Origin: an uncultured Candidatus Rokubacteria bacterium
GTDB taxonomy: Bacteria; Methylomirabilota; Methylomirabilia; Rokubacteriales; DASRDR01
Assembly (NCBI GenBank): GCA_963708025.1
Contig: CAVPSB010000034.1
Coordinates: forward strand, 96,001 to 160,000
Length of the DNA: 64,000 nt
Direction: 5' to 3'
Shown here: positions 9,115 through 52,610 of the stretch, piece after piece
How the letters are laid out: every line of letters begins with the position of its first letter
Numbering within the stretch: the first letter of the stretch is position 1
Notes under the pieces: model-generated
Database searches by the model: none
Told to the model about the DNA's origin: nothing
The model's input: only the letters and a program-made list of their open reading frames with translations
Program-made: the position numbers and the translations under genes

Positions 9115-9118
9115 GTCA

Positions 9119-9212
9119 TTCGGGGGGGTCTCGGAAGACCCCCCCGATGCCCCCCTCGGAGGCCGCGACTGTGGGACGGCCTTCGGCCTTTGGCCGCGGC
9201 TCGAAGTGGAAC
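9119..9212 (+). repeat. REP-like palindromic element, copy 2 (long form)
   Basis: TTCGGGGGGGTCTCGGAAGACCCCCCCGATGCCCCCC 4 nt after livG stop, followed by GGCCGCGGCTCGAAGTGGAAC matching the flank of copy 1. Confidence 0.8.
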
Positions 9213-10821
9213 GTCATGGCCGCGAGGCCTGAAGCGGGAGGGTGGCGAGAAGCCAGCGGGCGGCGGGAATGGGAGCCGCTGGGGCTCTTTCACGGATGCT
9301 CGCGCGGCGGCACTGGCCCCTCCGGTGGGGACCCACCGCGAGGCGCGGCTGGGCATTGCGACGCTGGCCGGAGTGGCGATCGGCGCCACCGGACTCCTCG
9401 CCGGGTACCTCACGATCAGGTCGCTGGGCTGGCCGCTCGTCCACGACGCGCCGCTGATGCACTACATCGCGGCGCGGCTGCTGGAGGGCGCGGTCCCCTA
9501 CCGGGACCTCTTCGACATGAACTTCCCCGGCGTCTACCTCGTGCACGCGCTGGGCCTCGCCCTCTTCGGACGGGGTGATCTCGCCTTCCGGGCCCTCGAC
9601 CTCCTCGTGCTGGCGGGAACGGTCGTGGGACTCGGCGTCGGGCTGGCGGGATTCGGGCGCCGGGCGGTGCTCGCCGCAGGCGTGCTCTTCTGGCTGTATC
9701 ACCTCGCCGGGGGCGCCTGGCGGGCCGGGCAGCGGGACTTCATCCTGTGCCTGCCCCTCGCCTGGTTCGCGGCCGCCGCCCTGGCCGACGTCGAGCGGCC
9801 GCGCCAGCGCACCCTCGGGCTGGCCGGGGTCGCGCTCGGTGCCGCTCTCTGGATGAAGCCGCACGCGATCTTCTTCCTCCCGCTGCTCGGCTGGCTCGCC
9901 GGGCGGCGGCCTCCCGGCGCTCGGGCTCGCGCCCTGGCGCAGGCCGCGCTGGGCGTGGCCCTGCCGGCGATCCCGGTGCTGGTCTGGCTGGCGGGGGCCG
10001 GGGCGCTGTCCGCGTTCGCCGACATCGTGGTTGGCTACCTCGTGCCGCTCTACAGCCGTCTCGGGCGCGAGTCGCTCGTCGCCGCCGTTCGGGGCCACGA
10101 TCTCGGCCCCCTGGTCCTCACCGGGCTCGGGCTGTGGGCGCTGGCGGGATGGCTGGCGCTCGGCGGCGCCCGGGTGCGCGACGGGCGGGCCGTGGTGCTG
10201 GCGGCCGGCGTTGCCTACGGCGTGCTCCACTTCGCGGTGCAGGGCAAGGGGTGGGAGTACCAGCTCTATCCGCTGGCCCTCTTCCTGGTGGCCTGCGGGG
10301 CGGCCGGCTTTGCCGTCGCGCTCGAGCGCGGTCGCCCCGCGCTGGCGGGGCTGCTGGTCGCCGGTCTGGTCGTCTCGGCCGGGGCCCTCGGCGTGAAGGG
10401 AGCCCGCAACCTGGATCCGGCCTGGATCGCCGCGAAGCGGGCTCGGGTGGCGGCGGTGACGGCCGCGCTGGCGCCGCTGGTCCCGGCCGGGGCCACCGTC
10501 CAGGTCCTCGACACGACGGACGGCGGCGTCCACGCGCTCTATCTCCTGCGGCTTCGCCAGCCCACCCGCTTCCTCTACGACTTCCACTTCTACCACGACG
10601 TCGAGCATCCGTTCGTCCGACGCCTCCGGGCCGAGCTGCTGGCGGGGCTGCGCGCGCGGCCGCCGGCGGCCGTGGTGCTCTTCGAGCGCGGCTGGCCCGG
10701 CGGCGACTACGGGCGACTCCGGCAATTCCCGGAGCTGGCCACGTGGCTCGAGGCCGGCTACCGGGTCGCGAGGGACGGCGACGGGTTCCGGGTCTATGCG
10801 GCGCGAGGGGCCGGGAGCTGA
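9190..10821 (+). CDS. Polytopic membrane glycosyltransferase, GT-C/ArnT-PMT-like (true start probably further downstream)
   Basis: HDAPLMHYIA...GAVPYRDLFDMNFPG motif after first TM, many TM segments, WMKP, soluble C-terminal domain. Confidence 0.65.
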   Translation: MAAARSGTSWPRGLKREGGEKPAGGGNGSRWGSFTDARAAALAPPVGTHREARLGIATLAGVAIGATGLLAGYLTIRSLGWPLVHDAPLMHYIAARLLEGAVPYRDLFDMNFPGVYLVHALGLALFGRGDLAFRALDLLVLAGTVVGLGVGLAGFGRRAVLAAGVLFWLYHLAGGAWRAGQRDFILCLPLAWFAAAALADVERPRQRTLGLAGVALGAALWMKPHAIFFLPLLGWLAGRRPPGARARALAQAALGVALPAIPVLVWLAGAGALSAFADIVVGYLVPLYSRLGRESLVAAVRGHDLGPLVLTGLGLWALAGWLALGGARVRDGRAVVLAAGVAYGVLHFAVQGKGWEYQLYPLALFLVACGAAGFAVALERGRPALAGLLVAGLVVSAGALGVKGARNLDPAWIAAKRARVAAVTAALAPLVPAGATVQVLDTTDGGVHALYLLRLRQPTRFLYDFHFYHDVEHPFVRRLRAELLAGLRARPPAAVVLFERGWPGGDYGRLRQFPELATWLEAGYRVARDGDGFRVYAARGAGS

Positions 10822-11476
10822 ATGCGACGCGAGGCGATCGCGCGCGTGGTCGCGGCCTACGACGACCCGATCATCCGGGCCTACTCGTGGGGACGGTTCC
10901 TGATCCTGCGCCAGCGCTTCCTCGACGAGATCGGCCAGTACCTGCCGGACGAGGGGACGGTGCTCGACATCGGCTGCGGCTTCGGCCTCTTCTCGCTCTA
11001 CTACGCGCAGCTCCTCCCGCGGCGCTTCCTTCCAGGGGGTCAACCTGAACGCCCGCCGGATCGCCCTGGCCACCGCGGCCGCACGGCGACTCGGGCTCGC
11101 CAACGTCGCCTACGCGGTGGATGACGCCCGCGGCTACCGGGTGGCGGGGACGCTGGCGGCCGCCTACATGCTCGACATCGTCCACCACGTCCCGCCGGAG
11201 ACGGTCGGGCCGCTGCTCTCGGAGCTGCACAAGGCGATCCGGCCGGGCGGGCGGCTCATCGTCAAGGACGTGGATACCCGGCCCACCTACAAGCGCTGGT
11301 TCACCCACGCGCTCGACCTCCTGATGAGCCCCCGGGGCGTCATCCACTACTGGCCGGCCGCCGAGCTGCAGCTCCTCCTCGAGCGCATCGGCTTCCGCGT
11401 GTACCGTCACCTCATGGTCAACGTCCTGCCGTACCCGCACGTGCTCTTCGTCTGCCACCGGGACCGAGATGGCTGA
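10822..11476 (+). CDS. Class I SAM-dependent methyltransferase, frameshift near 11030
   Basis: VLDIGCGFG; after shift DDAR...LDIVHHV...RPGGRLIVKD. Confidence 0.8.
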
Positions 11477-19954: not shown

Positions 19955-22136
19955 TCACACCATCTGGATACCGTGGTTCTTCAGCGGGAACGTGCGGATG
20001 CGCCGGCCGGTCGCGTCGAAGTACGCGTTCAGGACCGCCGGCGCCGCCACGCAGATCGTCGGCTCCCCGACCCCGCCCCAGAACCCGCCGGACGGCATGA
20101 TGATCGACTCGACCTTCGGCATCTGCGCGATCCGCATCGAGTCGTAGCTGTGGAAGTTCTCCTGCTCGATGCGGCCGGCCTTGACCGTGCACTCCTCCAT
20201 GAACAGCGCGGACAGGCCGTAGACGAACGACCCGGAGATCTGCCGCTCGATCTGCGCCGGGTTGACGGCATACCCGGAATCGGTCGCGGCGACGATGCGC
20301 CGGACCTTCACCTTGGTGCCGTCGCTGACGGAGATCTCCGCGCACGCCGCCACGTAGCTGCCGAACGCCATCATCTGCGCCAGACCGCGATGCACGCCCT
20401 GCGGCGCCGGCTTGCCCCAGCCCGCGCGATCGGCCACCGCGTTCAGCACGGCCAGGTGCTTGGGATGCTTGCTCATCAGCTTGCGCCGGAACTCGAGCGC
20501 ATCCTGGCCGGCGGCATGCGCCAGCTCGTCCATGAAGCATTCCATGAAGATGGCGTTCTGGTTGATGTTCACGCCGCGCCAGAACCCCGGCGGGACGTGC
20601 GTGTTGCGCATCGCATGGTCGATCAAGAGATTGGGGACGCTGTACCCGAACGCGAAATCACCGCTCGGGTCGAGCCCCTGGAAGGCCAGATTGTCCCTCC
20701 CGTCCTGGAGGTTCTGCGGGAACACGGCCGCGATGATGGACTGGCCGGACAGGCGGCAGTGCAGCCCCGTCAGATTCCCGGCCGCGTCCAGCGCCCCGGT
20801 CAGCTTCGCCTGCATGACCGGGTGATACCGGCCGTGGGTCATGTCCTCCTCGCGCGACCACAGGAGCTTCACGTGCGTGCCCGGAATCTGCTTGGCGATC
20901 AGGACGGCCTGGGTCACGTAGTCGTGGAAGGCCCCCCGCCGGCCGAAGCCGCCACCGAGATTGAGCTTGTAGACCTCGCACTTGTCGGCCGGCAGACCGG
21001 ACGCGGCCAGCGTCGCCGCGAATGCGGCCTCGCCATTCTGCGTCGGGACCCAGACCTCGCAGCGATCCGCCGTGTACTTCGCCGTCGCGTTCATCGGCTC
21101 CATCGGCGCGTGGTTCTGGAACGGATAGGCGTACACCGCCTCGACCTTCTTCGACCGCGCCCGCGATGGCTGCCTTCACGTCGCCGCTCTGGTTGCGCAC
21201 GAAGGCCTGATCGGCATCGAGGCCGGCCTTCAGCATCTCGGCGATCGTCGCGCTCGACACCGCGGCGTTCGGGCCCTCGTCCCAGACGATGGGCAGCGCG
21301 TCGAGCGCGGTCTTCGCCTGCCACCACGTGTCGGCCACGACGGCGACCGCGGAATCGCCGACCGGCACCACGTGCCGGACGCCGGGCATGCCCGTCACCT
21401 TGGCGGCCTCGAAGCTCTTCACCTTGCCGCCGAACACCGGACAGTCCTTGATCGCGGCATTGAGCATCCCGGGGAACCTCAGGTCGAAGCCGTAGACCTG
21501 CGCCCCGGTCACCTTCGGCAGCGTGTCGAGGCGCTTCACCGACTTGCCGATGAGCTTCCAGTCCTTCGGGTCCTTGAGCGCCACGCTCGCCGGCGGGGTC
21601 AGCTTCGCGGCGGCCTCCGCGACCTTGCCGTACGTGGTCGTGCGGCCGGTGGGCTTGTGCGTGATCACGCTGTTGGCGGCGCTGCACTCCGAGGCCGGCA
21701 CCCCCCAGGCGTCGGCCGCGGCCTGGACCAGCATCACCCGCGCGGTGGCGCCGCCCTGGCGGACGTACTCGTGCGACGTCCGGATGCCGCGGCTGCCGCC
21801 CGTGGAGAAATCGCCCCACACGCGCTTGCGCGCGACGCTCTGGCCGGGCGTCGGGTACTCGGTCGTCACCTTCGACCAGTCGCACTCGAGCTCCTCGGCC
21901 ACCATCTGCGCGAGGCCGGTGAGCGTGCCCTGCCCCATCTCGGACCGCGCGATCCGGATCACGACCGTGTCGTCCGGGCGGATGACCACCCAGGCGGTGA
22001 TCTCGGGCGAGCCGTCCTGGGCGCGGACCACGCTCGTGCCGAACGGGATCTTCAGGCCCAGGGCGAGCCCGGCGCCGACGGCGGTGGTGCCCACGATGAA
22101 GGAGCGGCGATCGATCCTCGCAGTCTTGGTGATCAT
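19955..22136 (-). CDS. Xanthine oxidase-family molybdopterin subunit (IorB-like), frameshift near 21150
   Basis: Tat [42 protein letters not shown]. Confidence 0.9.
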
Positions 22137-22149
22137 GGCCCGTTCCCCC

Positions 22150-22600
22150 TTATGCCTTCGCCGCGGCGTGGATCGCTTCGCGCACCTGCTGGAACGTGCC
22201 GCACCGGCAGATGTTCGTGATCGAGGCGTCGATGTCGGCATCGGTCGGCATCGGCTTGTCCTTCAGGAGCGCGGCCACCGCCATGATCATCCCGGACTGG
22301 CAATAGCCGCACTGCGGCACGTCGTGCTCGACCCAGGCCTTCTGCACCTTGTGCAGGACGCCACCGGTGGCGAGGCCTTCGATGGTGGTGATCTGCTTGC
22401 CCTCCACCGCGCCGACGGGCATCACGCAGGAGCGGACCGGCCTGGCCGTCGATGTGCACCGTGCACGCGCCGCACTGCGCCACGCCGCAGCCGTACTTGG
22501 TGCCCGTCAGGCCGACCTGCTCCCGGATGGCCCACAGCAGGGGTGTGCTGGGATCGACGTTGACCTCGCTGGTTCTGCCGTTGATCGTCAGGCGTGCCAT
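22150..22600 (-). CDS. (2Fe-2S) subunit (IorA-like), frameshift near 22430
   Basis: [31 protein letters not shown]. Confidence 0.92.
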
Positions 22601-22903
22601 GGCTGCTCCTCCCTCAAATCGCGGTTCGGCAAACGTGAACGGCAAGCGATCTCGCGTCGGGGGGTGTCGCGTCGGGACGCGCGCGTGACGCGCGGCGTCG
22701 GCCGGAGCACTCAGGCGTTCGCGCCGACGCCCGATGCTCCGCGCCTCCGAACATACGCCGTCCAACGCACCTGTCGGATCCTCCTGCCGGCGGCCGCGGT
22801 CACCCCGGGCCGTCACCCCGGTGGCCGTCCCCGGGGTGGGATGGAGTGTAGCGCGCCCGGGCCGGACTCCGCAACGCCCCCGTAGGGCGACCCTCCCGGG
22901 GGA

Positions 22904-23965
22904 CTACTCCAGGCCGGTCACCGTGACGTCGAGCATGCGCGTCTGGCGGGGGGCCCGCTGCCACTGCACGAGGATCGGGCTCTGGTAGATGCCCTCGACG
23001 GGCGCGAGGCGGCCGCTCCCCGCTTCGGCCACCAGCAGGCTGATGGACCGCCGCATGCGGAAGAACCGGGCGGCGGGCACGGCCAGCGTGCGCGCCAGCA
23101 CCTTCTCGACGATCGAGCCTTGCAGGCCCAGGGTGTCGAGGCCCGAGTTCAGCACGCGGACGAGGTCGTGCTTCGCGTACCCCAGCGCCTTGCCCGGAAC
23201 GGCTCGCGGGTTCGCGACCGCGTGTCGATAGCCCTCCGCCATGAACCGCACGGGATTCCGGAGGACCGCCGCCAGGTCGTGCTTCATGAGAAGCGTCTCG
23301 AACTCGTTGACCGTGAGCGCCGCGTGCCGCTCGGCCGGATCGAGCGCGATGTGCAGCCGGCCCTTGACGGCCCCGGCCCGGGCCACCAGCTCGCAGAGCT
23401 GGTCGTAGATCCCCAGCCTGGCGTCCTTGATGTTGACCGAATCGATGGGATGCGTGGACACCGGCACGCTGATCCGCGTCTGCTGGATGACGACCTCACG
23501 ATGGAACCCGATCACGCGGGCGAGCCGACGGCGCGAGCGCCCCTCGTTGATGCCGTCCAGATCGACGAAGCAGACGGCCTGGTCGGGGCGGTTCGGATGC
23601 GTCACGCACGGCCGGAGGCCCCCCGCCATGAAGGCGAGGTGGGAGTCGGCATTGCGCGGCTCGACCGCGCGCTGGGCGGCGTCCAGATCCCGCCGCCGCT
23701 CCAGGCGGTCGTGGGCGTACCCGGCCCCCTCCGGGAAGATCCGGCGCAGTGTCTCGACGTAGGTCGGGACGTGCGTCGCGCTGAGCCGCGCCGTGAGGCT
23801 GCGATCGAGGAACCCGGCCGTCGTGTGGGCCGACCAGTACAGGCAGTGTGGGTAGGGCGCCAGGACGTCGTGGTGCTCGCTCGGGAAGCGTGACCGCAGC
23901 TCCACCACGTCGAACCGGGAGCGCGGCGCGATCTCCAGGGTCAGCTCGAGCAGCCCCATCGGCAT
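22904..23965 (-). CDS. Hypothetical protein with two YjbQ/UPF0047-like halves
   Basis: First half HTTAG..P..GYAHD..NADSHL..FVDLDG..RRR; second half HAALTVNE..SISLLV..GIYQ..LVQW..PRQTR. Confidence 0.6.
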   Translation of the reverse strand: MPMGLLELTLEIAPRSRFDVVELRSRFPSEHHDVLAPYPHCLYWSAHTTAGFLDRSLTARLSATHVPTYVETLRRIFPEGAGYAHDRLERRRDLDAAQRAVEPRNADSHLAFMAGGLRPCVTHPNRPDQAVCFVDLDGINEGRSRRRLARVIGFHREVVIQQTRISVPVSTHPIDSVNIKDARLGIYDQLCELVARAGAVKGRLHIALDPAERHAALTVNEFETLLMKHDLAAVLRNPVRFMAEGYRHAVANPRAVPGKALGYAKHDLVRVLNSGLDTLGLQGSIVEKVLARTLAVPAARFFRMRRSISLLVAEAGSGRLAPVEGIYQSPILVQWQRAPRQTRMLDVTVTGLE

Positions 23966-23985
23966 CCGTCCTCTTGGCGGCGCGG

Positions 23986-24738
23986 TCAGGCCCCGGCCCG
24001 GCGCGTCGGCGGCGCCTCGAGGCGTGTGCCCACGACCGCGACCAGCCTGGCGGCCGCCAGCAGCCGGATGACGAGCCACGACGGGTCCAGCTCCGAGCGC
24101 CGGAGGGCGAACTTCGGCGCGCGCGGAAAGGCATGGTGGTTGTTGTGCAGGCTCTCCCCGCCGGTGAGCCAGGCGAGCACGCGGGAATTGTAGGCGGTGT
24201 TCCCGAAGTTCTGGGCGCCCGCCCAGTGTCCCAGGCCGTTGATCAGCGGCCCGATCACGAAGACGAAGAGGATCCCGTGCCCGAGCATGGCCGCCACGCC
24301 CTGCCACCAGCCGAGAGCCAGGCTCACGACCGTCATGCCGATCGCCAGACCGGTCCAGCCCCAGGCGAACAGGCGCCGGTCCCACGCATCCGGGGCGAGG
24401 TCCGGGGCGAACCGCTGCACCGTCTCCGGGTTCCGGGCCTCCCGGACGTAGTAGTACACGTTGCCCAGCTGGACCTTCCAGAAGCCCAGCAGCTGCGGGC
24501 TGTGGGGATCGCCCTCGCGGTCCGTGAACGTGTGGTGCTTCCGGTGGACCGCGACCCATTGCTGTCGGTCCTGGCCGGTCAGTAGCCACAGGACCAGGCG
24601 GAACAGCAAGTCCATGCCCGGTCGCAGCTTGAGCGACCGGTGCGCGAGCGCCCGGTGGAGGTAGATCGAGGTGGCGAAGGTCGCGAGCTGGGACAGCAGG
24701 ATCGCGGTGATCGCGATGATCAGGATCTGACGAGTCAC
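23986..24738 (-). CDS. Membrane fatty acid desaturase (delta-9-like)
   Basis: Three His boxes HRALAH, HRKHH, HNNHH; GDPHSP; INGLGH. Confidence 0.92.
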   Translation of the reverse strand: MTRQILIIAITAILLSQLATFATSIYLHRALAHRSLKLRPGMDLLFRLVLWLLTGQDRQQWVAVHRKHHTFTDREGDPHSPQLLGFWKVQLGNVYYYVREARNPETVQRFAPDLAPDAWDRRLFAWGWTGLAIGMTVVSLALGWWQGVAAMLGHGILFVFVIGPLINGLGHWAGAQNFGNTAYNSRVLAWLTGGESLHNNHHAFPRAPKFALRRSELDPSWLVIRLLAAARLVAVVGTRLEAPPTRRAGA

Positions 24739-24762
24739 GCTCGTTCCTTTCCGGACCGGCCC

Positions 24763-25670
24763 TCAGACCGAGGGGCTGCCATAGAGGTGCTCCCGGGTGC
24801 GCGGCGCGTGGCCACCCGTCGGGTCACGGTGCTTCCGCATCAGCATCTGGTAGAGGCCGATCGAGCCGCCCTCGAAGGCGACGGCCGAGCACGTCAGGTA
24901 CAGGAGCCACGTCCGGTACGTGCGCTCCCCGACCAGGGCGCGGGCCTCGTCGGCTCTCGCGCGCAGCCGCTCCACCCACTGCCGGCACGTCCGCGCGTAG
25001 TGGAGCCGCAGCCCCTCGACGTCCAGGATCTCCCAATTCGCGCGCTCGGCCTCGGTCAGCGTCTCGCTGAGCCCCGCCAGGTCGCCGTTCGGGAAGACGT
25101 GCCGGTACAGGAACTCGGTCTGGCTGGTGGGCTTCCAGTGGAACTCGTGCACGATCCCGTGGTTGAGGTACAGGCCGCCATCCTTCAGTCGGCTGCGCAC
25201 GCCGCCGAAGAACGCCGGGTAGTTCGGGATCCCCACGTGCTCGATCAGCCCGACCGCGGCGATCTTGTCGTAGGTGACGTCCGGAGCCAGGTCCCGGTAG
25301 TCCCGGTGCTCGACGCGGCAGCGCGCCTGCAGCCCTTCCCTCCGGATGCGGTCGGTGGCGTACGCGGCCTGCTCTCTGCGACAGCGTCACGCCGTGCGCG
25401 TGCACGCCGTAGTGCTGGGCCGCCCAGATCGCCAGGCTGCCCCAGCCGCACCCGATGTCGAGCAGCGTCTCGCCGGGCCGGAGCGCCAGCTTGCGACACA
25501 CCAGGTCGAGCTTGTCCTGCTGCGCCTGGTCGAGCTTGCCGTCCGGATCGCGGTAGTACGCGCACGTGTAGACCATCAGCGGGTCGAGGAAGAGCGCGTA
25601 GAACTCGTTCGAGACGTCGTAGTGGTGGGCGATCGCCTCCTGGTCCCGCTCCCGGCTCGCGCGGCTTCAT
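24763..25670 (-). CDS. Cyclopropane-fatty-acyl synthase-family methyltransferase, catalytic domain only (frameshifted)
   Basis: [65 protein letters not shown]. Confidence 0.88.
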
Positions 25671-26795
25671 GACGGCACCTCCCGCATCCCGAAGACCGCC
25701 CCCAGGACCACGTGGCGGCGGGTGACCTGCACGCCCAGCATGGTCTGCACCAGCGCCCGGACCATGGCGTCCGGCAGCCGGCCGAGCTGGCGGCCCAGCC
25801 AGCCGGCCTCACCGGTCCCGTAGGCGGCGCACGATCTCCCGCGCGTACGCCTCCAGCGCCACGCCCCGCCGGAGCCGGGCCTCGACGGCCCGGGCGGCGA
25901 GGATGCCGCTCCGGATGGCCGGTCCGATGCCCTCGCCGCTGAGGTCTCGCGCGAGCCCCGCGGCGTCGCCCACGAGGCAGAACCGCTCCCCGGCGAGCCG
26001 CCGCGGCGCTCGGCGCCGGACGACGTAGGCGTGGCCCCGGAACGGCTCGATCGGGAGGTCCGCGGGAAGCCGGCCCGAGGCCCGCAGGGCCTCGACGAGC
26101 CGGCTCCGGCGCTGTCGCAGATCCACGCCGGGTCCCGCGACGCAGCCGATCCCGATGTTGAGGACGTCCTGCTTGGGGAAGAACCAGCCGTAGCCCTTGA
26201 GGTCCGGCTCCACGTAGAGCTCCGGCACCCGGGAGGCCTCCTCGAGAGCCGTCCCCGGGGTCGGCGGCAGCCGCGTCTCGCTCTCCTGGGCGATCACGAC
26301 CTCTTCCTGCTCGGACACCTCGCCGAGCGCGCGGGCCACCGGGCAGAAATGGCCGCCGGCCCCGATGACCACGGACGCCGTGAAGACACCGTCGCCGGTG
26401 ACGAGCTCGATCCGGTCCCCGGCCGGCCTGACCGCGGTCACGCGCGCTCCGTCCTGCACGTCGGCGCCGGCGCCGCGGGCGCGCTCCAGGAGATAGTGGT
26501 CGAACTCCCGCCGGACGATCCCGTAGCTGGCCGGCCGGCGCCAGCGAGTCTCGTGGCGCGCCCCGTCGAACTCGAACCGGCAGGCGGAGAAGGCCTGGAT
26601 GGTGTGCGGATACGTCTCCGGGTCGACCTCGACGTCGGCCAGCGCCTGGGGGGTCACCCAGCCGGCGCAGACCTTCACCCGCGGGAACCGGGCGGCGTCG
26701 AGGACCAGCGGCCGAAGGCCGGCCCGGGCCAGCTGCCAGGCGGCGGAGCTGCCCCCCGGTCCGCCGCCAACGACGACGACCTCGCGATGATCCAC
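25667..26795 (-). CDS. Geranylgeranyl-reductase-like FAD-dependent oxidoreductase (frameshift near 25830)
   Basis: VVGGGPGGS, FPRVKVCAG, RREFDHYL, GYGWFFPK, LVGDAAG...GEGIGPA; tail in shifted frame ends MREVPS* overlapping the next ATG. Confidence 0.88.
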
Positions 26796-26796
26796 G

Positions 26797-27142
26797 TCAG
26801 CCCCGCCACATCGCGAGCAGGATCCGTACGCGGTCGGTCAGCGACACCCGGATCCCCTCGATGCTGTCCGCGATCTTCATCGCCTCGAACAGGTCCCCCT
26901 CGATGTCGAGCGCGCCCTCCACGTAGGCCTCGGCGAAGTTCAGCGGGGTCGGATCGCGGATCAGGCGGACGAACGTCTCGGGCTGGTGCATGACGGCCGT
27001 GCACACCGGCGGGCTCGCTCCCAGGGTCACCAGGGTTCCGTCCCAGAGACGGAAGGCGAACCCGACCGGGACGCCGTCGAACACCCGGTGCAGGATGTCC
27101 GCCGCCCGCCGGGAGGCTGAGTCGCCGCGACAGCCGGGTCAC
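26797..27142 (-). CDS. Stand-alone N-terminal domain of long-form CFA synthases (start frameshifted)
   Basis: FRLWDG, PLNFAEAYVEGALDIEGDL, the motif found N-terminal to the catalytic domain in many CFA synthases. Confidence 0.7.
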
Positions 27143-27333
27143 CTCTCGGGGATCTCCTCGCGCCGAGTGCTCACCGTTCCACACCCGGCGGGGCCGCCCG
27201 GCACCGTGACCGGACCCCGGAGACCAAGGCGGGCCGGGGCGTCACGCGGACAGGACTCGAAGGTGCGGACTCGACGAAACCGACTGCGGCACCCGGGCCT
27301 CCCCTCGAAGACCGGTCAGAAAAACTCGAGTCC

Positions 27334-27510
27334 CGGGCAGGTTTCCTGACTCTCGGATCACCCTACTCGCCGCCGTCTTCCCGGCACCGCCTGTCCGACG
27401 CCAGTGACTCGATGGCAGCTTTCGTCCCCGATCACAGTGACGGGGTCGTGGCGGATTCGCGCCGCCTTCCCTCTTCGCCCCACAGGGAGCGCACCCGGGA
27501 CCCCTGACAA
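27334..27510 (-). ncRNA. Cobalamin (B12) riboswitch
   Basis: Minus strand reads CAGG...AAGAGGGAAGGCGGCGCGAATCCGCCACGACCCCGTCACTGTGA...CACTGG...CCGGGAAGAC...GAGTCAGGAAACCTGCC: hallmark segments in order, including B12 box and P1 CAGG/CCTG. Confidence 0.92.
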
Positions 27511-27518
27511 CGTCGGCG

Positions 27519-27547
27519 ACACTAGCAGACGCCTCCGGCGCGGTCAA
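27519..27547 (-). promoter_or_regulatory. sigma70-type promoter driving the riboswitch leader
   Basis: TTGACC (27547-27542), 17 nt spacer, TAGTGT (27524-27519) with extended -10 TG. Confidence 0.7.
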
Positions 27548-27774
27548 GGGCCGGCGGCGAGGGCCGGCGGTGAGGGTCCGCGGCGCCACCGCCCCCGGAA
27601 GGCGGCGCGAGGACGACCGGATCGGAGGGGTCCCGATCTGCTGCCGTCGTTTCGCCGCAATTCGCCCTCATCTTTCCGCGCGCGGGCCACCACGCCGGCA
27701 CGACGCCGATGCCGCGAACGGAAAAGTTTGAGGCTCGATGACCGTGTGCTAGCCTCGACGAGCCGAGAGAGTAT

Positions 27775-28599
27775 ATGGCCGTTCACGCGGGCACCGCCGA
27801 TGTTGACCTCGGACACCCGGCCCGGAGCCGCCCGGCTCGGGACGTCTCCCACCGGTTCCGGCGCCAGCCGGCTGGCAAGGGGGCTTGGCTGTTCCTGGCC
27901 ATCGGCGTCGCGGTCCTTCTCGCGGTGGCCCTGCGCCCGGTGGTCGGGCCGCGGCGCGATCTCGCCCGTGGTGCCCATCCCGAGCCGGCGCCGTCGACGA
28001 CCCGTCAGCTGATCGCGACCCCGCCGATCCTCGCCGACCCACCGGCGATCTCGGACGGCCCAGCGGTGATCCCGGCCGACGCACCGCCGATCCTCGCCGA
28101 CCCGGGGCCGATCTCCACCGAGCCGCCCGCCGCATCGGGTCTCGTGTTCCGGGTCCAGGTCGGGTCGTTCCTCGATCTTCGGAACGCGCTGCGCATGGTC
28201 GAGCGACTACGAGGCGAGGGCCTCCCGGCCGATCTCCGGGTCGCCCAGGGCCATCAGGTGCGGTACCGTGTCCTCGTGACACCTGGGACGGGCGAGACCG
28301 ACGAGAAGCTGCTCGCCCGCCTCAGCGTGCTGGGCGTCTCGGCGACGGCCGTAAACGGGGAATTCGCCGTCACGGGCTTCGTGCCGACCGAGGACGCCGA
28401 CGCGATCGCCAGTCGCCTGGAAGACGAAGCGATCGCGGTGCGCGTCGAGGGGGAGCAGCGGGTGGTCTCCTACCACGCGGTGCGCGTGGGCACCTATCGC
28501 GCGGCTCAGGACGCTGATCGGGCCCGGGTCGAGCTGACCGCTCGCGGGCTGGCGGGGCTCGTCGTGCGGGAATCGGACGACGGCTCCGGAGGCGAGTAA
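27775..28599 (+). CDS. SPOR-domain membrane-anchored protein
   Basis: Single TM, Pro-rich linker with repeated PPILADP, FRVQVGSF..NA, VRVGTY..A. Confidence 0.75.
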   Translation: MAVHAGTADVDLGHPARSRPARDVSHRFRRQPAGKGAWLFLAIGVAVLLAVALRPVVGPRRDLARGAHPEPAPSTTRQLIATPPILADPPAISDGPAVIPADAPPILADPGPISTEPPAASGLVFRVQVGSFLDLRNALRMVERLRGEGLPADLRVAQGHQVRYRVLVTPGTGETDEKLLARLSVLGVSATAVNGEFAVTGFVPTEDADAIASRLEDEAIAVRVEGEQRVVSYHAVRVGTYRAAQDADRARVELTARGLAGLVVRESDDGSGGE

Positions 28600-28601
28600 G
28601 C

Positions 28602-29543
28602 TCAGTCCGCGCCGGCCACGGCCTGGGAGAGACGACGCGCCAGCTCGCGATGCCGCGTGAAGTAGTACGCGAGCATGGCCCCCGCCGCGCACAGGTTGGC
28701 GACCGCGACCGCCCAGCCCGCCAGGTGGTCGAACACCCACCGCGCCAGCACGAGAACGACGGCGAAGAATAGCACCTCGAAGCCGAGGTAGAGGACGACC
28801 AGCAGGAAGAAGAACATGGGGTCCCGCTCGGCGCCCGCGACCAGGAGAGCTCCGACGATGCCGAGCACGACGAAGGCGCCCACGTGGACCAGCGTGTACG
28901 AGAGCACCCCGCCGAGCGGATCCGCCTGCCCGAGGAGCGCCTTGGCGAGGATCCGGGGCGTCGTGAGCGGCTCGCCGGCCACCGCGTCGAGGACGAGGAA
29001 CCAGGCCATCACCACGGCCGCGCCGATGAGCCCCGCGACCACGCCCTCGCGCAGCACGGGCCCCGACGCGCCCACGAGGGGCGCCGCCGCCCCCGGGTGG
29101 GCGCGGAGGAAGAACCAGAGCATGCCCACCGCCGCCAGGAGGTTCGCCCCGAGGATGCGCCACCAGACCAGCGCGCCGAGCAGCGAAGGGCCCAGTCGCT
29201 CCAGGACGAGGAAGAACGAGACTTCGAACGCCGCGAACAGGACGACGAAGGCGACGAACATCGCGGGCTCCCGCTCGCTGGTGGCGAGCAGGCTGGCCGC
29301 CACGATGCCGAAGCCCACGAACGCGGCGACGTGGATGAGGGTGTAGCCCAGCACCGGGCCGAGGGCGATCTGGACGGTCGCCGGATCGGCGGCGCCCCGG
29401 AACACGGCCGCGCCGAGGAGGCCCGGGGTCAGGAGCGGCTGCCCGCGGCCCACGTCGAGCACGAGAAACCACAGGGCGACGATGGCGGCGCCGACGACGC
29501 CGGCCAGCACGCCCTCCCGCAGCACCGAGCTCCGCGCGTTCAT
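28602..29543 (-). CDS. Hypothetical polytopic membrane protein with internal duplication
   Basis: Two repeats beginning VLREGVLAGVVGAA..WFLVLD..G.PL.TP and VLREGVVAGLIGAA..WFLVLD..GEPLTTP. Confidence 0.8.
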   Translation of the reverse strand: MNARSSVLREGVLAGVVGAAIVALWFLVLDVGRGQPLLTPGLLGAAVFRGAADPATVQIALGPVLGYTLIHVAAFVGFGIVAASLLATSEREPAMFVAFVVLFAAFEVSFFLVLERLGPSLLGALVWWRILGANLLAAVGMLWFFLRAHPGAAAPLVGASGPVLREGVVAGLIGAAVVMAWFLVLDAVAGEPLTTPRILAKALLGQADPLGGVLSYTLVHVGAFVVLGIVGALLVAGAERDPMFFFLLVVLYLGFEVLFFAVVLVLARWVFDHLAGWAVAVANLCAAGAMLAYYFTRHRELARRLSQAVAGAD

Positions 29544-29588
29544 GGGCCCCTCCCCCGGCCGCTGTCCGGGCGCCCACGCCCCGGCCGG

Positions 29589-29870
29589 TCAGGCACTCCC
29601 GCCGCTCCCGGAATCGAACGCCGAGCCCGGGCCGGAGCGTCGCCCGGCCGCCGACAGGTGCCGGCGGAGCCAGGCGCCCGCGACGACCACCGCCACGAAC
29701 GGGAGCACCGTGAGAACGACGGCACTCCAGTAGAACCCGGGGTTCAGGCCCGTTCCCTCGCGCCCCCCGCCGATGCAGACCGCGCAGGCCTCCGCCGCGA
29801 CGGGACCGAGCAGGGGTACGACCGCGAGGACGGCTCGGGCCGTCTCCCGGGTCCAGCGGCGTGCGCGCAT
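29589..29870 (-). CDS. Small CxxC membrane protein in oxidase operon
   Basis: Signal-like N-terminus, AEACAVC, one TM helix. Confidence 0.65.
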   Translation of the reverse strand: MRARRWTRETARAVLAVVPLLGPVAAEACAVCIGGGREGTGLNPGFYWSAVVLTVLPFVAVVVAGAWLRRHLSAAGRRSGPGSAFDSGSGGSA

Positions 29871-29881
29871 CGCTGATTCCC

Positions 29882-30619
29882 TCACCAGAGGTAGACGAGA
29901 CCCCACAGGACCGGCCAGAGCAAGACGACGAAGGTCCAGTAGAGGCCCGCGGCCGCCAGCGGGCCCGGCGCGGGCCGATTCCCCCGAGCTCTCCCTGCCT
30001 GGGCGCGGAGCAGGACGAGCCAGCCGAGCGCCGCCGCCACGTGGGCCGCGTGGGCGCCGACCAGCACGTAGAAGGTCGCCCCGTACACGCCCGACGGCGC
30101 GGTGAAGCCGAACCTCACGAGGCGCGCCCACTCGAACCCCTGCATGAAGAGGAAGATCGCCCCGCCCAGCGCGGCCTGCTCGAGCCGCAGGCACAGCGAG
30201 CGGCGGTCCGCTGCCCCGACCGCCCGGCGCATGGCGTGCCCGCTCCACAGGAGCACGGCCGTGCCGAGCGCGGTGATCCCGACCGGGAGGCGCGGCTCCC
30301 CCTGCGGAGGCCAGGCCGGGGAGCCGAGCCGGAACACGAGGAACGCCGCGACGAGGCCGCCGAAAAGCATCGTCTCGGCCACGAGCAGCACCACGATCCC
30401 CACGCGGACAGCGTCGGCGCGCTGCTCGGCGCCCCCGTCCCACCCCGGCCATCGGCCCTCCTCGACCGGCCCGACGGGCGGCGGCGGCCGCCCCGCGGCC
30501 CCCGCCGGACGGCCCACGACCGGCTCGGTCTCGAGCAGCCGGGACGCCGGCATCTCGGCGCGCCTCACCCCGTCCGGTCCGACACGGGGGAGTCCGGCGA
30601 CGGCCCTCGACGTCTGCAC
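29882..30619 (-). CDS. Cytochrome c oxidase subunit III-family protein, copy 2 (start uncertain)
   Basis: AETMLFGGL, FYVLVGAHAAHV, LYWTFVVLLWPVL. Confidence 0.85.
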   Translation of the reverse strand: MQTSRAVAGLPRVGPDGVRRAEMPASRLLETEPVVGRPAGAAGRPPPPVGPVEEGRWPGWDGGAEQRADAVRVGIVVLLVAETMLFGGLVAAFLVFRLGSPAWPPQGEPRLPVGITALGTAVLLWSGHAMRRAVGAADRRSLCLRLEQAALGGAIFLFMQGFEWARLVRFGFTAPSGVYGATFYVLVGAHAAHVAAALGWLVLLRAQAGRARGNRPAPGPLAAAGLYWTFVVLLWPVLWGLVYLW

Positions 30620-30631
30620 GCGTCGGTCACC

Positions 30632-30913
30632 TCAGCGGTGGAACACGAAGTCCGGGAAGAGCGCGATCAGGAGGCCCAGGACGAACAGGACGGGGAGGAT
30701 CGCCAGGGCATAGAGGAAGCGCGGCTCCCAGCGCAGGTGCATGAAGTTCCCGGCGACCAGCACCGCCTTGACCACCGCCGTCGCGAAGATGAGCAGGAGC
30801 GCGACCGTGCGTCCTCCGGGCAGGTAGTTCGCGAAGAGGCTCACGACCAGGAGAGCCACGAGCCAGCCCCAGATCACCACGTAGCTGGGCCGTGCCGCAC
30901 CGGATGCCATCAC
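30632..30913 (-). CDS. Cytochrome c oxidase subunit IV family
   Basis: KAVLVAGNFMHLRWE, three TMs. Confidence 0.85.
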   Translation of the reverse strand: MMASGAARPSYVVIWGWLVALLVVSLFANYLPGGRTVALLLIFATAVVKAVLVAGNFMHLRWEPRFLYALAILPVLFVLGLLIALFPDFVFHR

Positions 30914-30944
30914 CGTCCTCCGGGGCCCCCCGCCGCCCGCCGCC

Positions 30945-31523
30945 TCAGGAGAGATAGACGAGCGGGAAGAGGAAGATCCACACGATGTTCACGAAGTGCC
31001 AGTAGAGCCCTGCCAGCTCCACGCGATCCGGGCGCTCCGTCCCGGCTACCGCGAACAGGAGCCCGTTCAGGATCAGACCGGCCAGCACATGGAGCGCGTG
31101 GAGTCCCGTCAGCGTGTAGTAGAAGGACCAGAAGATCCCGGCCCCGGGCGTGTACCCGGCCTGGATCTTGCCCGTGTACTCGAAGGCCTTGATGGCGAGG
31201 AACGCCAGCCCCAGCGCGATCGTCGCCAGCAGGTACCAGCGAAACCCGCCCGCATCGCCCCGCTCGGCCGCGCCGTACGCCTGCACCACGGTCAGGCTGC
31301 TCGTCAGGAGCACCAGGGTGTTGAGCGCCGCCAGCGGCACCGAGAGGTGGGCGGACTCCTCGTGCCACCCGCCGGCCCCGACGCGGAAGACGACGAACGC
31401 CGCCAGGAGGCCGCCGAACACCATGATCTCGGAGGCCAGGAACCACCACATCGCGAGCTTGCCGGCCGGCACGCCGGCAAAGGCCGGGCGCTCGGCTGCG
31501 GGGGCGTGGACGCCGACGGCCAT
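30945..31523 (-). CDS. Cytochrome c oxidase subunit III
   Basis: KLAMWWFLASE, LTGLHALHV, GLYWHFV. Confidence 0.9.
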   Translation of the reverse strand: MAVGVHAPAAERPAFAGVPAGKLAMWWFLASEIMVFGGLLAAFVVFRVGAGGWHEESAHLSVPLAALNTLVLLTSSLTVVQAYGAAERGDAGGFRWYLLATIALGLAFLAIKAFEYTGKIQAGYTPGAGIFWSFYYTLTGLHALHVLAGLILNGLLFAVAGTERPDRVELAGLYWHFVNIVWIFLFPLVYLS

Positions 31524-31540
31524 CAGCGCGACTCCTCGGG

Positions 31541-33256
31541 TCAGCGGGACAAAGCGAGGGCCTGGTCCTGGGGGACCCAGTCCTGCCGCGCCGCGGGGTG
31601 GCTGTACTCGTAGGGTCCGTGGTGGACCACCGGCACCCGCTCACCCCAGTTGCCGTGCGGCGGCGGGGACGGCGCCGACCAGTCGAGCGTGTTCGCCTCC
31701 CACGGGTTCGCCGGCGCGCGGCGGCCGGCCGCCAGGCTCCAGGCCACGTTGGCGACCAGCACGACCTGCGATGCCATGAGCCCGAACGCCCCGTACGAGA
31801 TCAGCACGTTCAGCCACTGGTGGGGGACCAGCGCGTCGTACTGGAGCGGGTTCGCGATCCGCCGGACCATGCCGGCGAGCCCGATGTTGTGCATCGGGAA
31901 GAAGGTGAGGTTGAAGAACACGACCGTCAGCCAGAAGTGGAGCTTCCCGAGGCCCTCGGACAGCATCCGGCCGCTCATCTTCGGGAACCAGAAGTAGAGG
32001 CCGGCGAAGCCCCCGAAGAACACGGCGCTGAACAGCGTGTAGTGGAAGTGCGCGACGACGAAGTAGGTGTTGTTGATGTAGATGTCGACCGGGGCCGACC
32101 CGTTGAAGATGCCGGTGAGCCCGCCCACGATGAACATCGTGACGAAGCCGAGGGCCCAGAGCATCGGGGTGTCGAAGCGGATCGAGCCCCGCCACAGCGT
32201 CGCGATCATCGCGAACATCACGAAGGCGAACGGCACCGAGATCAGGATGGTCGTGACCGAGAAGGGCATCGCCAGACGCGGGTCCATGCCACTCACGAAC
32301 ATGTGGTGCGCCCACACGATGAACGACAGCGCCCCCGCCACCAGGGTGGCCCAGATGATCCACCGGTACCCGAAGATCGGCTTCCGGGAGAACACCGGCA
32401 GGACCTCCAGCACGAAGCCGACGGCGGGCAGCAGCACGACGTAGACCTCGGGGTGCCCGAAGAACCAGAAGAGATGCTGCCAGAGGAGCGGGTCCCCGCC
32501 GCCGGCCGGCGCGAAGAACTGCGTCCCGATCGTCCGGTCCAGGAGGAGCATCACCGCCCCGCCGATCAGGGGCCCCACCGACAGCAGGAAGATCACCGCC
32601 GCCATGAGTTGATGCCACACGACCAGCGGGAGCCGGAAGAAGCCCATGCCCGGGGCTCGCAGGACGATCGCGGTCGTCACGTAGTTGACCCCGCCCATCA
32701 GGAACGACGCGAACTCCAGCGCGTGGGCCAGGAGCCAGAGGTTCAGCCCCCACGTCACCCCGGTGAAGTCCGGCCGCGCCGACAGCGGCGGGTACCCGGT
32801 CCAGCCCGCCGAGGCCGCCCCGCCCGGCACGAAGAAGGACACGAGCAGGAGCAGGGAGGCGACGAGGAACACCCAGACCGAGAGCATGTTCAGGCGCGGG
32901 AAGACCATGTCCCGGGCGCCGATCATGAGCGGGATCAGGAAGTTTCCGAACGCCCCCAGCAGGATGGGCATCGCCACGAAGAACACCATGATGGTCCCGT
33001 GCATCGTGACGAAGACGTTGTAGGCCTCGGGCCCGACCTCGCCCAGCACCGGAACTGGCGCCTCCGGCCAGGCGAGCTGGTATCGCATCAGGAACGCGAG
33101 AAAGCTCCCCACCAGGATCCAGAACACCCCGAGGCCGAGGTACTGCATCCCGATGGTCTTGTGGTCGGTCGCGAAGACGTACCGCCCCCAGAATCCCGGC
33201 GCCGCGTGCTGGGCGACGTGCGCCACCGCCGCCGTCCCGGCCCCCGCCTCGCTCAT
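31541..33256 (-). CDS. coxA: Cytochrome c oxidase subunit I (A1 type)
   Basis: TDHKTIG, TMHG, DMVFPRLN, WFFGHPEVY, WAHHM, VAHFHY. Confidence 0.95.
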   Translation of the reverse strand: MSEAGAGTAAVAHVAQHAAPGFWGRYVFATDHKTIGMQYLGLGVFWILVGSFLAFLMRYQLAWPEAPVPVLGEVGPEAYNVFVTMHGTIMVFFVAMPILLGAFGNFLIPLMIGARDMVFPRLNMLSVWVFLVASLLLLVSFFVPGGAASAGWTGYPPLSARPDFTGVTWGLNLWLLAHALEFASFLMGGVNYVTTAIVLRAPGMGFFRLPLVVWHQLMAAVIFLLSVGPLIGGAVMLLLDRTIGTQFFAPAGGGDPLLWQHLFWFFGHPEVYVVLLPAVGFVLEVLPVFSRKPIFGYRWIIWATLVAGALSFIVWAHHMFVSGMDPRLAMPFSVTTILISVPFAFVMFAMIATLWRGSIRFDTPMLWALGFVTMFIVGGLTGIFNGSAPVDIYINNTYFVVAHFHYTLFSAVFFGGFAGLYFWFPKMSGRMLSEGLGKLHFWLTVVFFNLTFFPMHNIGLAGMVRRIANPLQYDALVPHQWLNVLISYGAFGLMASQVVLVANVAWSLAAGRRAPANPWEANTLDWSAPSPPPHGNWGERVPVVHHGPYEYSHPAARQDWVPQDQALALSR

Positions 33257-33281
33257 GTGGTCGTCTCCCGGCCCGTGTCCG

Positions 33282-33959
33282 TCAGGATCCCCACTGCTCG
33301 GCCCGCCACCGGTCGAAGACCTCCGGCGTCTCGACGAAGAGGTATCCCTTCATCCCGGAGTGCCCGAACCCGCAGAGCATGGCGCAGGGAAGCTCGTACT
33401 TGCCGGTCTTCGTCGCCTCGAACCAGGCGTCGATCACGCGCCCCGGCACCACGTCCTGCTTGAGACGGAGGTTGGGCAGGAAGAAGCTGTGGATGACGTC
33501 CTTCGAGCGGAGCTCGAGCCGCACCGGCTTCCCGACCGGGACGTGGATCTCGTTGTCGAAGGTCCGGTCGTCCGTGGTGTCGAACTTCCCGTCCGGCCCC
33601 GGGTAGACGACCTCCCAGTTGAACTGCTTGCCGGTGACCCGGATCGTCAGCTCCGCCGGCGGCCGCTCCAGCTTGACCCGCGCCCAGGCCGGCGCGCCCT
33701 TGAAGTCGATCCAGAAATCGAGCACCAGCACGACCGCCACCGGGACGAGCAGCCACGCCACCTCGCCGAGCCGCTCGCCGCGCACGTACGCCGCGCGCTG
33801 GCCCGGGCGGCGCCGGTAGCGGACGAGGAACCAGCCGATGGCGCCGAAGGTGATGAAGAACCAGATGATCGTGAGGTAGTAAACCAGGCCGAAGACCGCG
33901 TCGATCTCGCCACCGTAGGTCGAGACGTTCTCGGGCAGCCACCGGAACCAGTTGAGCAT
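33282..33959 (-). CDS. coxB: Cytochrome c oxidase subunit II
   Basis: DVIHSF, CuA motif CAMLCGFGHSGM. Confidence 0.93.
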   Translation of the reverse strand: MLNWFRWLPENVSTYGGEIDAVFGLVYYLTIIWFFITFGAIGWFLVRYRRRPGQRAAYVRGERLGEVAWLLVPVAVVLVLDFWIDFKGAPAWARVKLERPPAELTIRVTGKQFNWEVVYPGPDGKFDTTDDRTFDNEIHVPVGKPVRLELRSKDVIHSFFLPNLRLKQDVVPGRVIDAWFEATKTGKYELPCAMLCGFGHSGMKGYLFVETPEVFDRWRAEQWGS

Positions 33960-52594: not shown

Positions 52595-52610
52595 CGGGAT
52601 CCTCCCGGGG

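Follow-up and report, generated by a model that had tools for sequence, protein, structure and literature searches.

A cobalamin riboswitch at the head of a tmpBA-like, probable lipid-modification operon in an uncultured Rokubacteria genome

Introduction

This report concerns a five-gene operon and the cobalamin (vitamin B12) riboswitch that precedes it, found in a 64,000-nucleotide stretch of DNA from an uncultured Candidatus Rokubacteria bacterium (hereafter the window: positions 96,001 to 160,000 of contig CAVPSB010000034.1, assembly GCA_963708025.1; window coordinates count from its first letter). Cobalamin riboswitches almost always mark genes of B12 supply or B12-independent isozymes. 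The supply genes, cob and btu, are repressed by B12, and B12 riboswitches likewise repress the B12-independent isozymes metE (as against metH) and class I nrdAB (as against nrdJ). A described case with a lipid gene comes from metagenomes, where a cobalamin riboswitch was noted before ole1/COG1398, which codes for a desaturase of fatty acids (Kazanov, Vitreschak, and Gelfand, 2007; PMC2211319); that paper proposes that ole1 encodes the B12-independent member of an isozyme pair.

The closest described lipid genes are those of the tmpBA ("ten-methyl palmitate") operon, reported from Desulfobacteraceae, Marinobacter and Thiohalospira (Blitzblau et al., 2021; PMC7791843). That report describes TmpB as a Cfa-like methyltransferase that yields 10-methylene palmitate in E. 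coli and yeast, and TmpA as a flavoprotein resembling the anaerobic geranylgeranyl reductases of archaea, presumed to be the methylene reductase; it assigns TmpA and BfaA, the latter from the actinomycete 10-methylstearate genes bfaAB, to different flavoprotein families.

We describe here how the window operon compares with these systems, where its riboswitch came from and how widely the riboswitch accompanies related operons. We hold it somewhat probable that a long-form cobalamin riboswitch controls the five genes, and that these remodel the acyl chains of the membrane.

The riboswitch and its leader

The operon and its leader lie on the reverse strand. Positions 27513-27319 match the Rfam cobalamin family (RF00174, long form with P6 extension) over its full length, model positions 1-189 of 189, at 106.1 bits (E = 1.5e-25; the gathering score is 31.5), and this is the sole Rfam match in the window. 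A first-pass annotation, made from the letters of the DNA, had claimed a complete cobalamin riboswitch here and suggested the Rfam search that now confirms it; our custom model R1 gives the same aptamer 176 bits. In the RF00174 alignment GUCACUGG stands against the consensus gCCACUGg with one mismatch, a region that we take to be the conserved B12-box core (GCCACUG). This long-form riboswitch is probably of the adenosylcobalamin type.

Just upstream, a promoter-like site was recognized by eye and by conservation: TTGACC (27547-27542), a 17-nt spacer and TAGTGT (27524-27519). Both hexamers are kept in the paralogous leader of the cobU gene in the same genome, described below, and the TAGTGT box is kept in orthologous leaders. 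These hexamers are the sigma-70 promoter originally called at this place. A scan of positions 22500-28000 for consensus sigma-70 promoters and terminators returned no site of either kind; the scan misses this one because TAGTGT fits TATAAT at only three of six positions.

Between the aptamer end (27319) and the GTG start of the first gene, cfaN (27142), there are 176 nt of leader, a little less than the 190 or so first estimated. A predicted expression-platform hairpin with the motif CCGGUC (27331-27295) encloses the strong ribosome-binding site (RBS) GAGGGGAGG (27306-27298) and would sequester it; CCGGUC is a possible kissing-loop partner of GAUCGG in the aptamer. The stretch from TGACCGGTC to GGGTGCC is letter for letter that of the cobU leader. 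This RBS is followed by the GTG start of a 16-codon upstream open reading frame, uORF1 (27292-27242, VPQSVSSSPHLRVLSA), a homologue of which precedes cobU in the same genome and in relatives of the same family. The uORF1 stop overlaps the next GTG (as GTGA), which opens the 24-codon uORF2 (27245-27171, VTPRPALVSGVRSRCRAAPPGVER); 28 nt containing GAGGAGA then lead to the cfaN GTG. In the orthologous operon at locus L013 the uORF stop overlaps the cfaN ATG. The likeness of uORF2 to CobU N-termini is modest, being equalled by 43 of 1000 DNA shuffles and 30 of 2000 peptide shuffles, and uORF2 is probably what is left, in decayed form, of the start of the cobU coding sequence, brought here with the duplicated leader.

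We propose that bound B12 would stabilize the hairpin and hide the uORF RBS, as at cob operons. The lost translation of the uORF would then shut down the downstream genes, either through the coupled small reading frames or through polarity, and the operon would be expressed when B12 is scarce. We infer the same OFF polarity here because cob and btu genes are repressed by B12; the hairpin is identical to that of the cobU leader.

Genes of the operon

Domains and junctions bear out the initial description of five tightly packed, co-oriented genes behind the riboswitch: cfaN and the flavoprotein gene are 1 nt apart, the flavoprotein and methyltransferase genes overlap by ATGA, and the other two junctions measure 24 and 20 nt. 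None of the five is a gene of B12 transport or synthesis, also as first stated. The window is 71.5% G+C, and its closest relatives are metagenome-assembled genomes (MAGs) of Rokubacteria and Methylomirabilota.

The first gene, cfaN (27142-26797), encodes a stand-alone N-terminal domain of a Cfa-type synthase (Pfam DUF7884, 32.3 bits) that is 71% identical to its L013 orthologue. The second (26795-25667) encodes a TmpA-like protein of the geranylgeranyl-reductase (GGR) family that binds flavin adenine dinucleotide (FAD) by family assignment; the evidence is Pfam together with the L013 orthologue, 75% identical, which passes the TIGR02032 cut-off (180.4 bits against 158.8). Its stretch YGWFFP-x7-GIG is presumably the GGR motif. 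The third gene (25670-24763) encodes the TmpB-like catalytic half (CMAS, PF02353) of a Cfa-type methyltransferase that uses S-adenosylmethionine (SAM), with Pfam matches of 96 and 101 bits on both of its window pieces; the L013 orthologue scores 307.9 bits on CMAS and aligns to CfaB positions 99-393.

The fourth gene, des (24738-23986), is intact and encodes a DesA-like membrane fatty-acid desaturase (PF00487, FA_desaturase, 73.8 bits against a cut-off of 29.7). HRALAH, HRKHH and HNNHH occur in its translation, which we take to be the three histidine boxes. In length it falls some 130 residues short of the NCBIfam DesA model, and it fails the equivalog cut-off of that model (196.4 bits against 400, over profile positions 8-239 of 385).

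The fifth gene (23965-22904), also intact, encodes a protein of 353 residues for which the structure model and profiles uphold the proposed tandem YjbQ-like assignment, with the YjbQ/UPF0047 fold present twice in one chain. The window protein misses the cut-off of the Pfam family PF01894 (18.4 bits against 27) and its L013 orthologue gives no match to it; the family, which lies outside Pfam coverage, has 2088 relatives among 8000 scored candidates and 478 cluster representatives at E <= 0.001. A profile built from 25 of its members weakly matches YjbQ/UPF0047 crystal structures over residues 7-90 and again over 186-238. With the AlphaFold (AF2) model (predicted local distance difference test 85, predicted template-modelling (TM) score 0.84) as Foldseek query, 17 matches at E <= 0.001 precede the first that is not YjbQ, every one listed being a YjbQ/UPF0047 protein, at target-normalized TM scores of 0.62-0.71. 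Columns that do not vary among 25 diverse members include, in the first half, S45, H47, T48, T49, G51, Y83, H85, D86, E102, N105 and H109, and, in the second, N220, E221, E223 and D230; these residues could be a metal or substrate site. The neighbors of tandem yjbQ genes in two Acidobacteriota genomes encode a DEAD helicase, an ABC ATPase, a hydrolase, MoaA, HisRS and an acyl-CoA synthetase; there were no lipid genes near the gene in these two, three of the five genomes asked had no match, and the neighborhood therefore offers no functional clue.

Divergent from the operon, positions 27775-33349 hold a gene for a SPOR-domain protein and, clustered together, COX1, COX3 and COX4 of a cytochrome c oxidase, which indicates an aerobic lifestyle, as an O2-dependent desaturase would require.

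Relation to tmpBA and bfaAB

We fetched 80 species-level loci with the GGR-like protein as query and mapped the operon genes in each. In 53 of them (L004-L056, from Rokubacteria, Binatia and delta-proteobacteria-like MAGs) the GGR gene has cfaN immediately before it, and CMAS follows in 50, the other three loci ending at the GGR gene. Among the remaining 27 (L057-L083, from Acidobacteriota, Gallionella, Gammaproteobacteria and others) CMAS is found upstream of GGR in 25, in the published order tmpB-tmpA and in ten cases with a separate cfaN match, and L078 and L079 hold the GGR gene alone. The desaturase gene and the 353-residue gene follow CMAS in 13 of the 80 loci; at L017 des is cut by the contig end, and at L011 the 353-residue gene follows CMAS without des.

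By domain content and gene order the core of the window operon is tmpBA with tmpB cut in two and tmpA placed between the halves, and it is not new in kind. Both systems pair a Cfa-type SAM methyltransferase in an operon with a GGR-like flavoprotein, and both would be expected to take an olefinic acyl chain through a 10-methylene to a 10-methyl chain. The window order is cfaN, GGR, CMAS, whereas the published layout is a whole tmpB followed by tmpA, and the window operon adds the desaturase, the tandem YjbQ gene and the cobalamin riboswitch. No named Marinobacter or Thiohalospira protein was among the 120 matches listed in a search from the gammaproteobacterial homologue of L083. The bfaAB genes share with the window the plan of Cfa-like methylenation and subsequent flavin-dependent reduction, but BfaA is of the FAD-oxidase type and the gene order differs, whereas the window reductase is of the GGR family. 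The comparison with the actinobacterial pair of CFA enzyme and flavin reductase, drawn in the first-pass annotation, is therefore to be replaced by tmpBA as the right comparator; the accompanying logic of desaturation, methylenation and reduction fits the gene content and matches the published tmpBA system.

In that pathway the DesA-like desaturase would introduce a double bond, at delta-9 in all probability, into an acyl chain of a phospholipid. The split Cfa-type methyltransferase (cfaN and CMAS together) would use SAM to make the 10-methylene chain, as TmpB does, and the TmpA-like GGR-family flavoprotein would reduce the methylene group to a 10-methyl branch. The products might instead be cyclopropane or methylene acids, or the substrates isoprenoid lipids such as quinones, hopanoids or polyprenols, a combination of alternatives that we regard as unlikely. 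They draw on the best NCBIfam match of the catalytic half, which is the cyclopropane synthase CfaB, on the GGR relatives that reduce isoprenoids (BchP, MenJ and DGGGPL reductase among the NCBIfam matches), and on the reductase activity of TmpA, which was never seen (PMC7791843). However, the pairing of a Cfa-type enzyme with a protein of this GGR clade is conserved across many phyla and is tied by the tmpBA work to 10-methylene palmitate; the desaturase of the same operon supplies an olefin; and the phylum's cultured member, Ca. Methylomirabilis, is said to have 10-methylhexadecanoic acid (10-methyl-16:0) as its typical lipid (PMC6581649, citing Kool 2012).

Frameshifts in the assembly

Compared with orthologues, the window carries four single extra bases, near 27115 (cfaN, seen against 19 orthologues), 25825 (GGR), and 25658 and 25376 (both CMAS). 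The operon could for this reason be dead in the source organism, through real frameshifts of very recent date; four single-base insertions within 4.2 kb do strike three genes. Yet the frames are open on both sides of each shift, with high G+C at third codon positions and products 61-84% identical to the L013 proteins. The sole ileS of the assembly, moreover, is spread over three frames (38677-41249 of contig C3 in G000, our label for the source genome; 618-3877 of the fetched locus L084), and the molybdopterin oxidoreductase large-subunit gene that adjoins the operon downstream (window 19955-22241) is split in two; rpoB is intact in the same assembly. We read the four insertions as probable assembly errors because an essential gene and the oxidoreductase gene are broken as well and the frames stay open, and we consider a dead operon highly unlikely. 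In places the assembly appears to carry about one indel per 1-2 kb.

Origin of the riboswitch

Searches of the genome (nhmmer and the family search) found only three cobalamin elements: that of the window, one in the cobU leader on contig C3, and a partial one beside a TonB receptor gene. The C3 operon genes are those for CobU, CobT, a BtuF-like protein and BtuC, as checked against NCBIfam. The partial element (L084 9265-9376, G000 C3 47264-47375) scores 26 bits, over model positions 81-162 only, and is located upstream of a frame that resembles a TonB-dependent receptor. Either it is a btuB-type switch that has diverged, or assembly errors have damaged it.

Aligned with the C3 cobU leader, the window leader shows 81% mean column identity over all 511 columns. 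The alignment spans the -35 box, the aptamer, the RBS hairpin, the 16-codon uORF and the GTGA stop-start overlap; matches are dense as far as the shared GTGA and scattered after it. The alignment shows the whole window leader to be a paralogue of the leader of cobU-cobT-btuFC in the same genome. The window aptamer itself is 81% identical to the cobU aptamer, as against 63% and 61% to the riboswitches in the orthologous position at L013 and L045.

A tree of 25 aptamers, from an alignment fitted to model R1, places the window aptamer within a clade (99/99) of 13 riboswitches from its own taxonomic family, and the L013 and L045 aptamers as a pair (92/88) in another group. A topology that unites the three lipid-operon riboswitches in one clade fails the approximately unbiased (AU) test (p = 0.0003). 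Either this operon type acquired the riboswitch at least twice, or the local cob leader has replaced an older switch.

Within the family the cobU leader keeps to one design: the riboswitch and the RBS hairpin come first, a uORF of some 16 codons follows, and cobU starts inside the uORF stop (GTGA). It recurs at L084 4070-4400 (G000 contig C3), L113, L115, L116, L118 and L120-L123, where the cobU and cbiA labels of the relatives come from translations, the C3 genes alone having been checked against NCBIfam. Relatives from another family (G001-G004) have cobU directly after the RBS, without a uORF. Leader-like DNA is present in 20 of 21 genomes of the window's family, and the cfaN part of the query matches almost nothing there. 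A close GGR orthologue occurs within the family only in the window's genome, with a 45% version in one other genome, and the flanks of the operon match in family relatives only 65-75% identical multi-copy paralogues on scattered contigs. Genome G015 holds three leader-like copies within 2.5 kb (contig C73, 7708-10168) and a fourth on another contig, which suggests that the leader is prone to duplication.

Distribution of the riboswitch among related operons

The first-pass annotation had left it to be seen whether homologous operons ever carry the riboswitch, and L013 and L045 do. Among the 13 closest loci, Rfam finds full riboswitches in these two (106.8 and 101.4 bits), a marginal half in L008 (32.1 bits) and none in the other ten. 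Model R1, applied to the 80 genome loci, found L013 and L045, partial elements at the same place in L008 and L017, and five weak matches elsewhere; weak matches at L024, L026 and L031 (E 0.43-0.86) are on the opposite strand, and those at L031, L052 and L077 were not confirmed by Rfam. Decayed 5′ halves were recognized in the aligned upstream regions of L008, L017, L014 and L029.

No cobalamin riboswitch was found by Rfam in the 24 loci that have the tmp genes only (18 of the split type and six of the two-gene type). A further 80 loci with the desaturase were fetched from metagenomes, 18 of which hold cfaN together with its upstream region, several being near-identical. R1 matches lie upstream of cfaN in 11 of the 18, all truncated or weak (22-49 bits, against 175-186 for L013 and L045); at this position L135, L137 and L138 reach 32-36 bits with Rfam, and L136, L147, L152, L158 and L163 have no match. 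Two loci, L157 and L192, have a decayed L013-type riboswitch directly before des-yjbQ without tmp genes, and in L192 the stop of the remnant uORF overlaps the des start. Another des-yjbQ locus, L159, gave no R1 match, nor did 46 more distant stand-alone des loci (51-69% identity), many of them on short contigs.

Thus the intact riboswitch is known at three operons only, the window, L013 and L045, and the idea that it is a conserved part of the synteny of cfa and GGR genes does not survive the 24 tmp-only loci without it. To judge from gene neighborhoods, the switch, intact or decayed, tracks des-yjbQ and not the methyltransferase-reductase pair. The remnants form a natural decay series at one orthologous site, with the 5′ half only, the 3′ half only or a central deletion; its members are L008 5522-5580, L017 5509-5611, L014, L029, L135-L145, L157 1659-1829 and L192 3244-3351.

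These remnants bear on the possibility that the riboswitch is present as a by-product: a copied cob leader would supply a promoter and RBS, while its B12 control is non-adaptive and being lost. Most orthologous operons do hold truncated remnants or nothing, and the window leader still drags along its relic of cobU codons; but the aptamer does not fall behind its cob-operon counterparts in score (106 against 95 bits), the expression platform is unchanged, two or more origins are required at one operon type, and an unrelated metagenome case of 2007 links a B12 riboswitch to a desaturase (PMC2211319). A mere by-product thus seems to us an improbable explanation.

Cobalamin and the lipid genes

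If B12 does switch the operon off, the likeliest logic is that it represses an O2- and di-iron-dependent, B12-independent route whenever it opens another route, as it does for class I ribonucleotide reductase. NrdB and the desaturase are both O2-dependent di-iron enzymes. At L163 class I nrdA, read in two pieces, and nrdB follow a strong cobalamin riboswitch of 82.5 bits (7796-11440, reverse strand), and this unit adjoins the lipid operon, convergent with it; these bacteria therefore apply the classical rule by which B12 represses a di-iron isozyme. A similarly placed strong riboswitch (76 bits) occurs at L160 7372-7567, reverse strand. The window operon shares with metE and nrdAB a cobalamin riboswitch, of what appears to be the OFF type, before genes that are not B12 genes; unlike in those cases, its B12-dependent counterpart is hypothetical. 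We know of no B12-dependent isofunctional enzyme for desaturation or for mid-chain methyl branching.

The ole1 case of Kazanov et al. (2007; PMC2211319) likewise has a B12 riboswitch before a membrane fatty-acid desaturase and the same isozyme proposal; unlike the present analysis, that paper gives no operon partners, organism or switch origin, and the desaturases are likened here by type only. The opening claim that B12-riboswitch control of such a pathway had no description was, in the light of this precedent, too strong. A survey of tmpBA, of cobalamin riboswitches with cyclopropane fatty acids and of part of the literature on cobalamin riboswitches and desaturases brought up no account of a tmpBA-type operon headed by a B12 riboswitch.

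The B12 users of the genome include HpnJ, three or more acyl-CoA-mutase B12 domains, a fragment of a corrinoid protein and several B12-binding radical-SAM proteins that have no assignment. One reading of this inventory, which we rate as quite improbable, makes the operon a B12-independent stand-in for a B12-dependent radical-SAM methylase that branches the saturated chain directly. There are at least six B12-binding radical-SAM proteins besides HpnJ, several without assigned function; one is encoded in the window itself (51536-52615, reverse strand), and kin apply the isozyme logic of the B12 riboswitch to nrdAB. Yet no B12-binding radical-SAM protein except HpnJ passes a lipid-enzyme cut-off, the window gene has no lipid context, its flanking genes encoding amidohydrolases and a nearby one an acyl-CoA dehydrogenase, the riboswitch follows des-yjbQ and not the methyl-branching genes, with decayed copies before des-yjbQ alone, and acyl-CoA mutases, as a source of branched primers, are equally good candidates. 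The frame of the window gene, 359 residues long, ends about 70 residues into the radical-SAM domain, probably through another frameshift.

Several points weigh against B12 control of an acyl-chain-remodelling operon, the reading that we favor. On the side of the cobalamin logic, none of the B12-binding radical-SAM proteins, acyl-CoA-mutase B12 domains or HpnJ of the genome could be linked to desaturation or mid-chain branching, and to switch on a SAM-consuming enzyme under B12 scarcity is no obvious economy. On the side of the leader, the folding z-scores of the expression platforms (-0.1 to +1.4) are not significant, and the 28 nt from the uORF2 stop to the cfaN start leave no direct coupling of uORF and cfaN. 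As to the genes, the four frameshifts break three of the five (cfaN, GGR and CMAS) in the assembly, the likeness to tmpBA is one of family profiles and gene order, and TmpA was inactive in both E. coli and yeast (PMC7791843). Finally, as to distribution, the intact switch is present in two of 14 sampled genome loci holding des (L013 and L045) and upstream of cfaN in none of the 18 metagenome loci, with decayed remnants in four further genome loci (L008, L017, L014 and L029, the last with or without des); as read from these loci, B12 control is rare, dispensable and repeatedly lost.

Significance

Three things are new here: the riboswitch on a tmpBA-type operon, the extended gene set of this operon (des and tandem yjbQ), and, from comparison of leaders, a sequence-level record of the recruitment of a riboswitch from a cob leader. 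In this recruitment a copy of about 400 nt of cob leader was inserted together with promoter, uORF and probably the first cobU codons. The locus also offers a complete aptamer, intact orthologues (L013 and L045), natural decayed controls and a defined set of genes (des, split tmpB, tmpA and yjbQ), and missing partners or conditions are a possible reason for the inactivity of TmpA in E. coli and yeast.

Cobalamin riboswitches mark B12 supply genes or B12-independent isozymes so regularly that a lipid operon in their regulon points to a B12-dependent step in membrane lipid metabolism. To our knowledge the B12-desaturase isozyme idea of 2007 has never been followed up. We suggest, tentatively and with more doubt than confidence, that soil Rokubacteria and the marine bacteria of 2007 have an unrecognized B12-dependent route to membrane fluidity, to which the desaturase with the split TmpB/TmpA is the B12-repressed back-up, just as NrdAB is to NrdJ. 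If so, branched primers derived from acyl-CoA mutases, or B12-dependent radical-SAM methylation, would be candidates for the B12-dependent route, the split TmpB/TmpA module would turn the double bond into an oxidation-proof methyl branch, and the repeated recruitment of cob-operon riboswitches, at least twice, would be convergent adaptation. Mid-chain methyl-branched acids serve as lipid biomarkers, and possible control of their genes by B12 bears on how such biomarkers are read.

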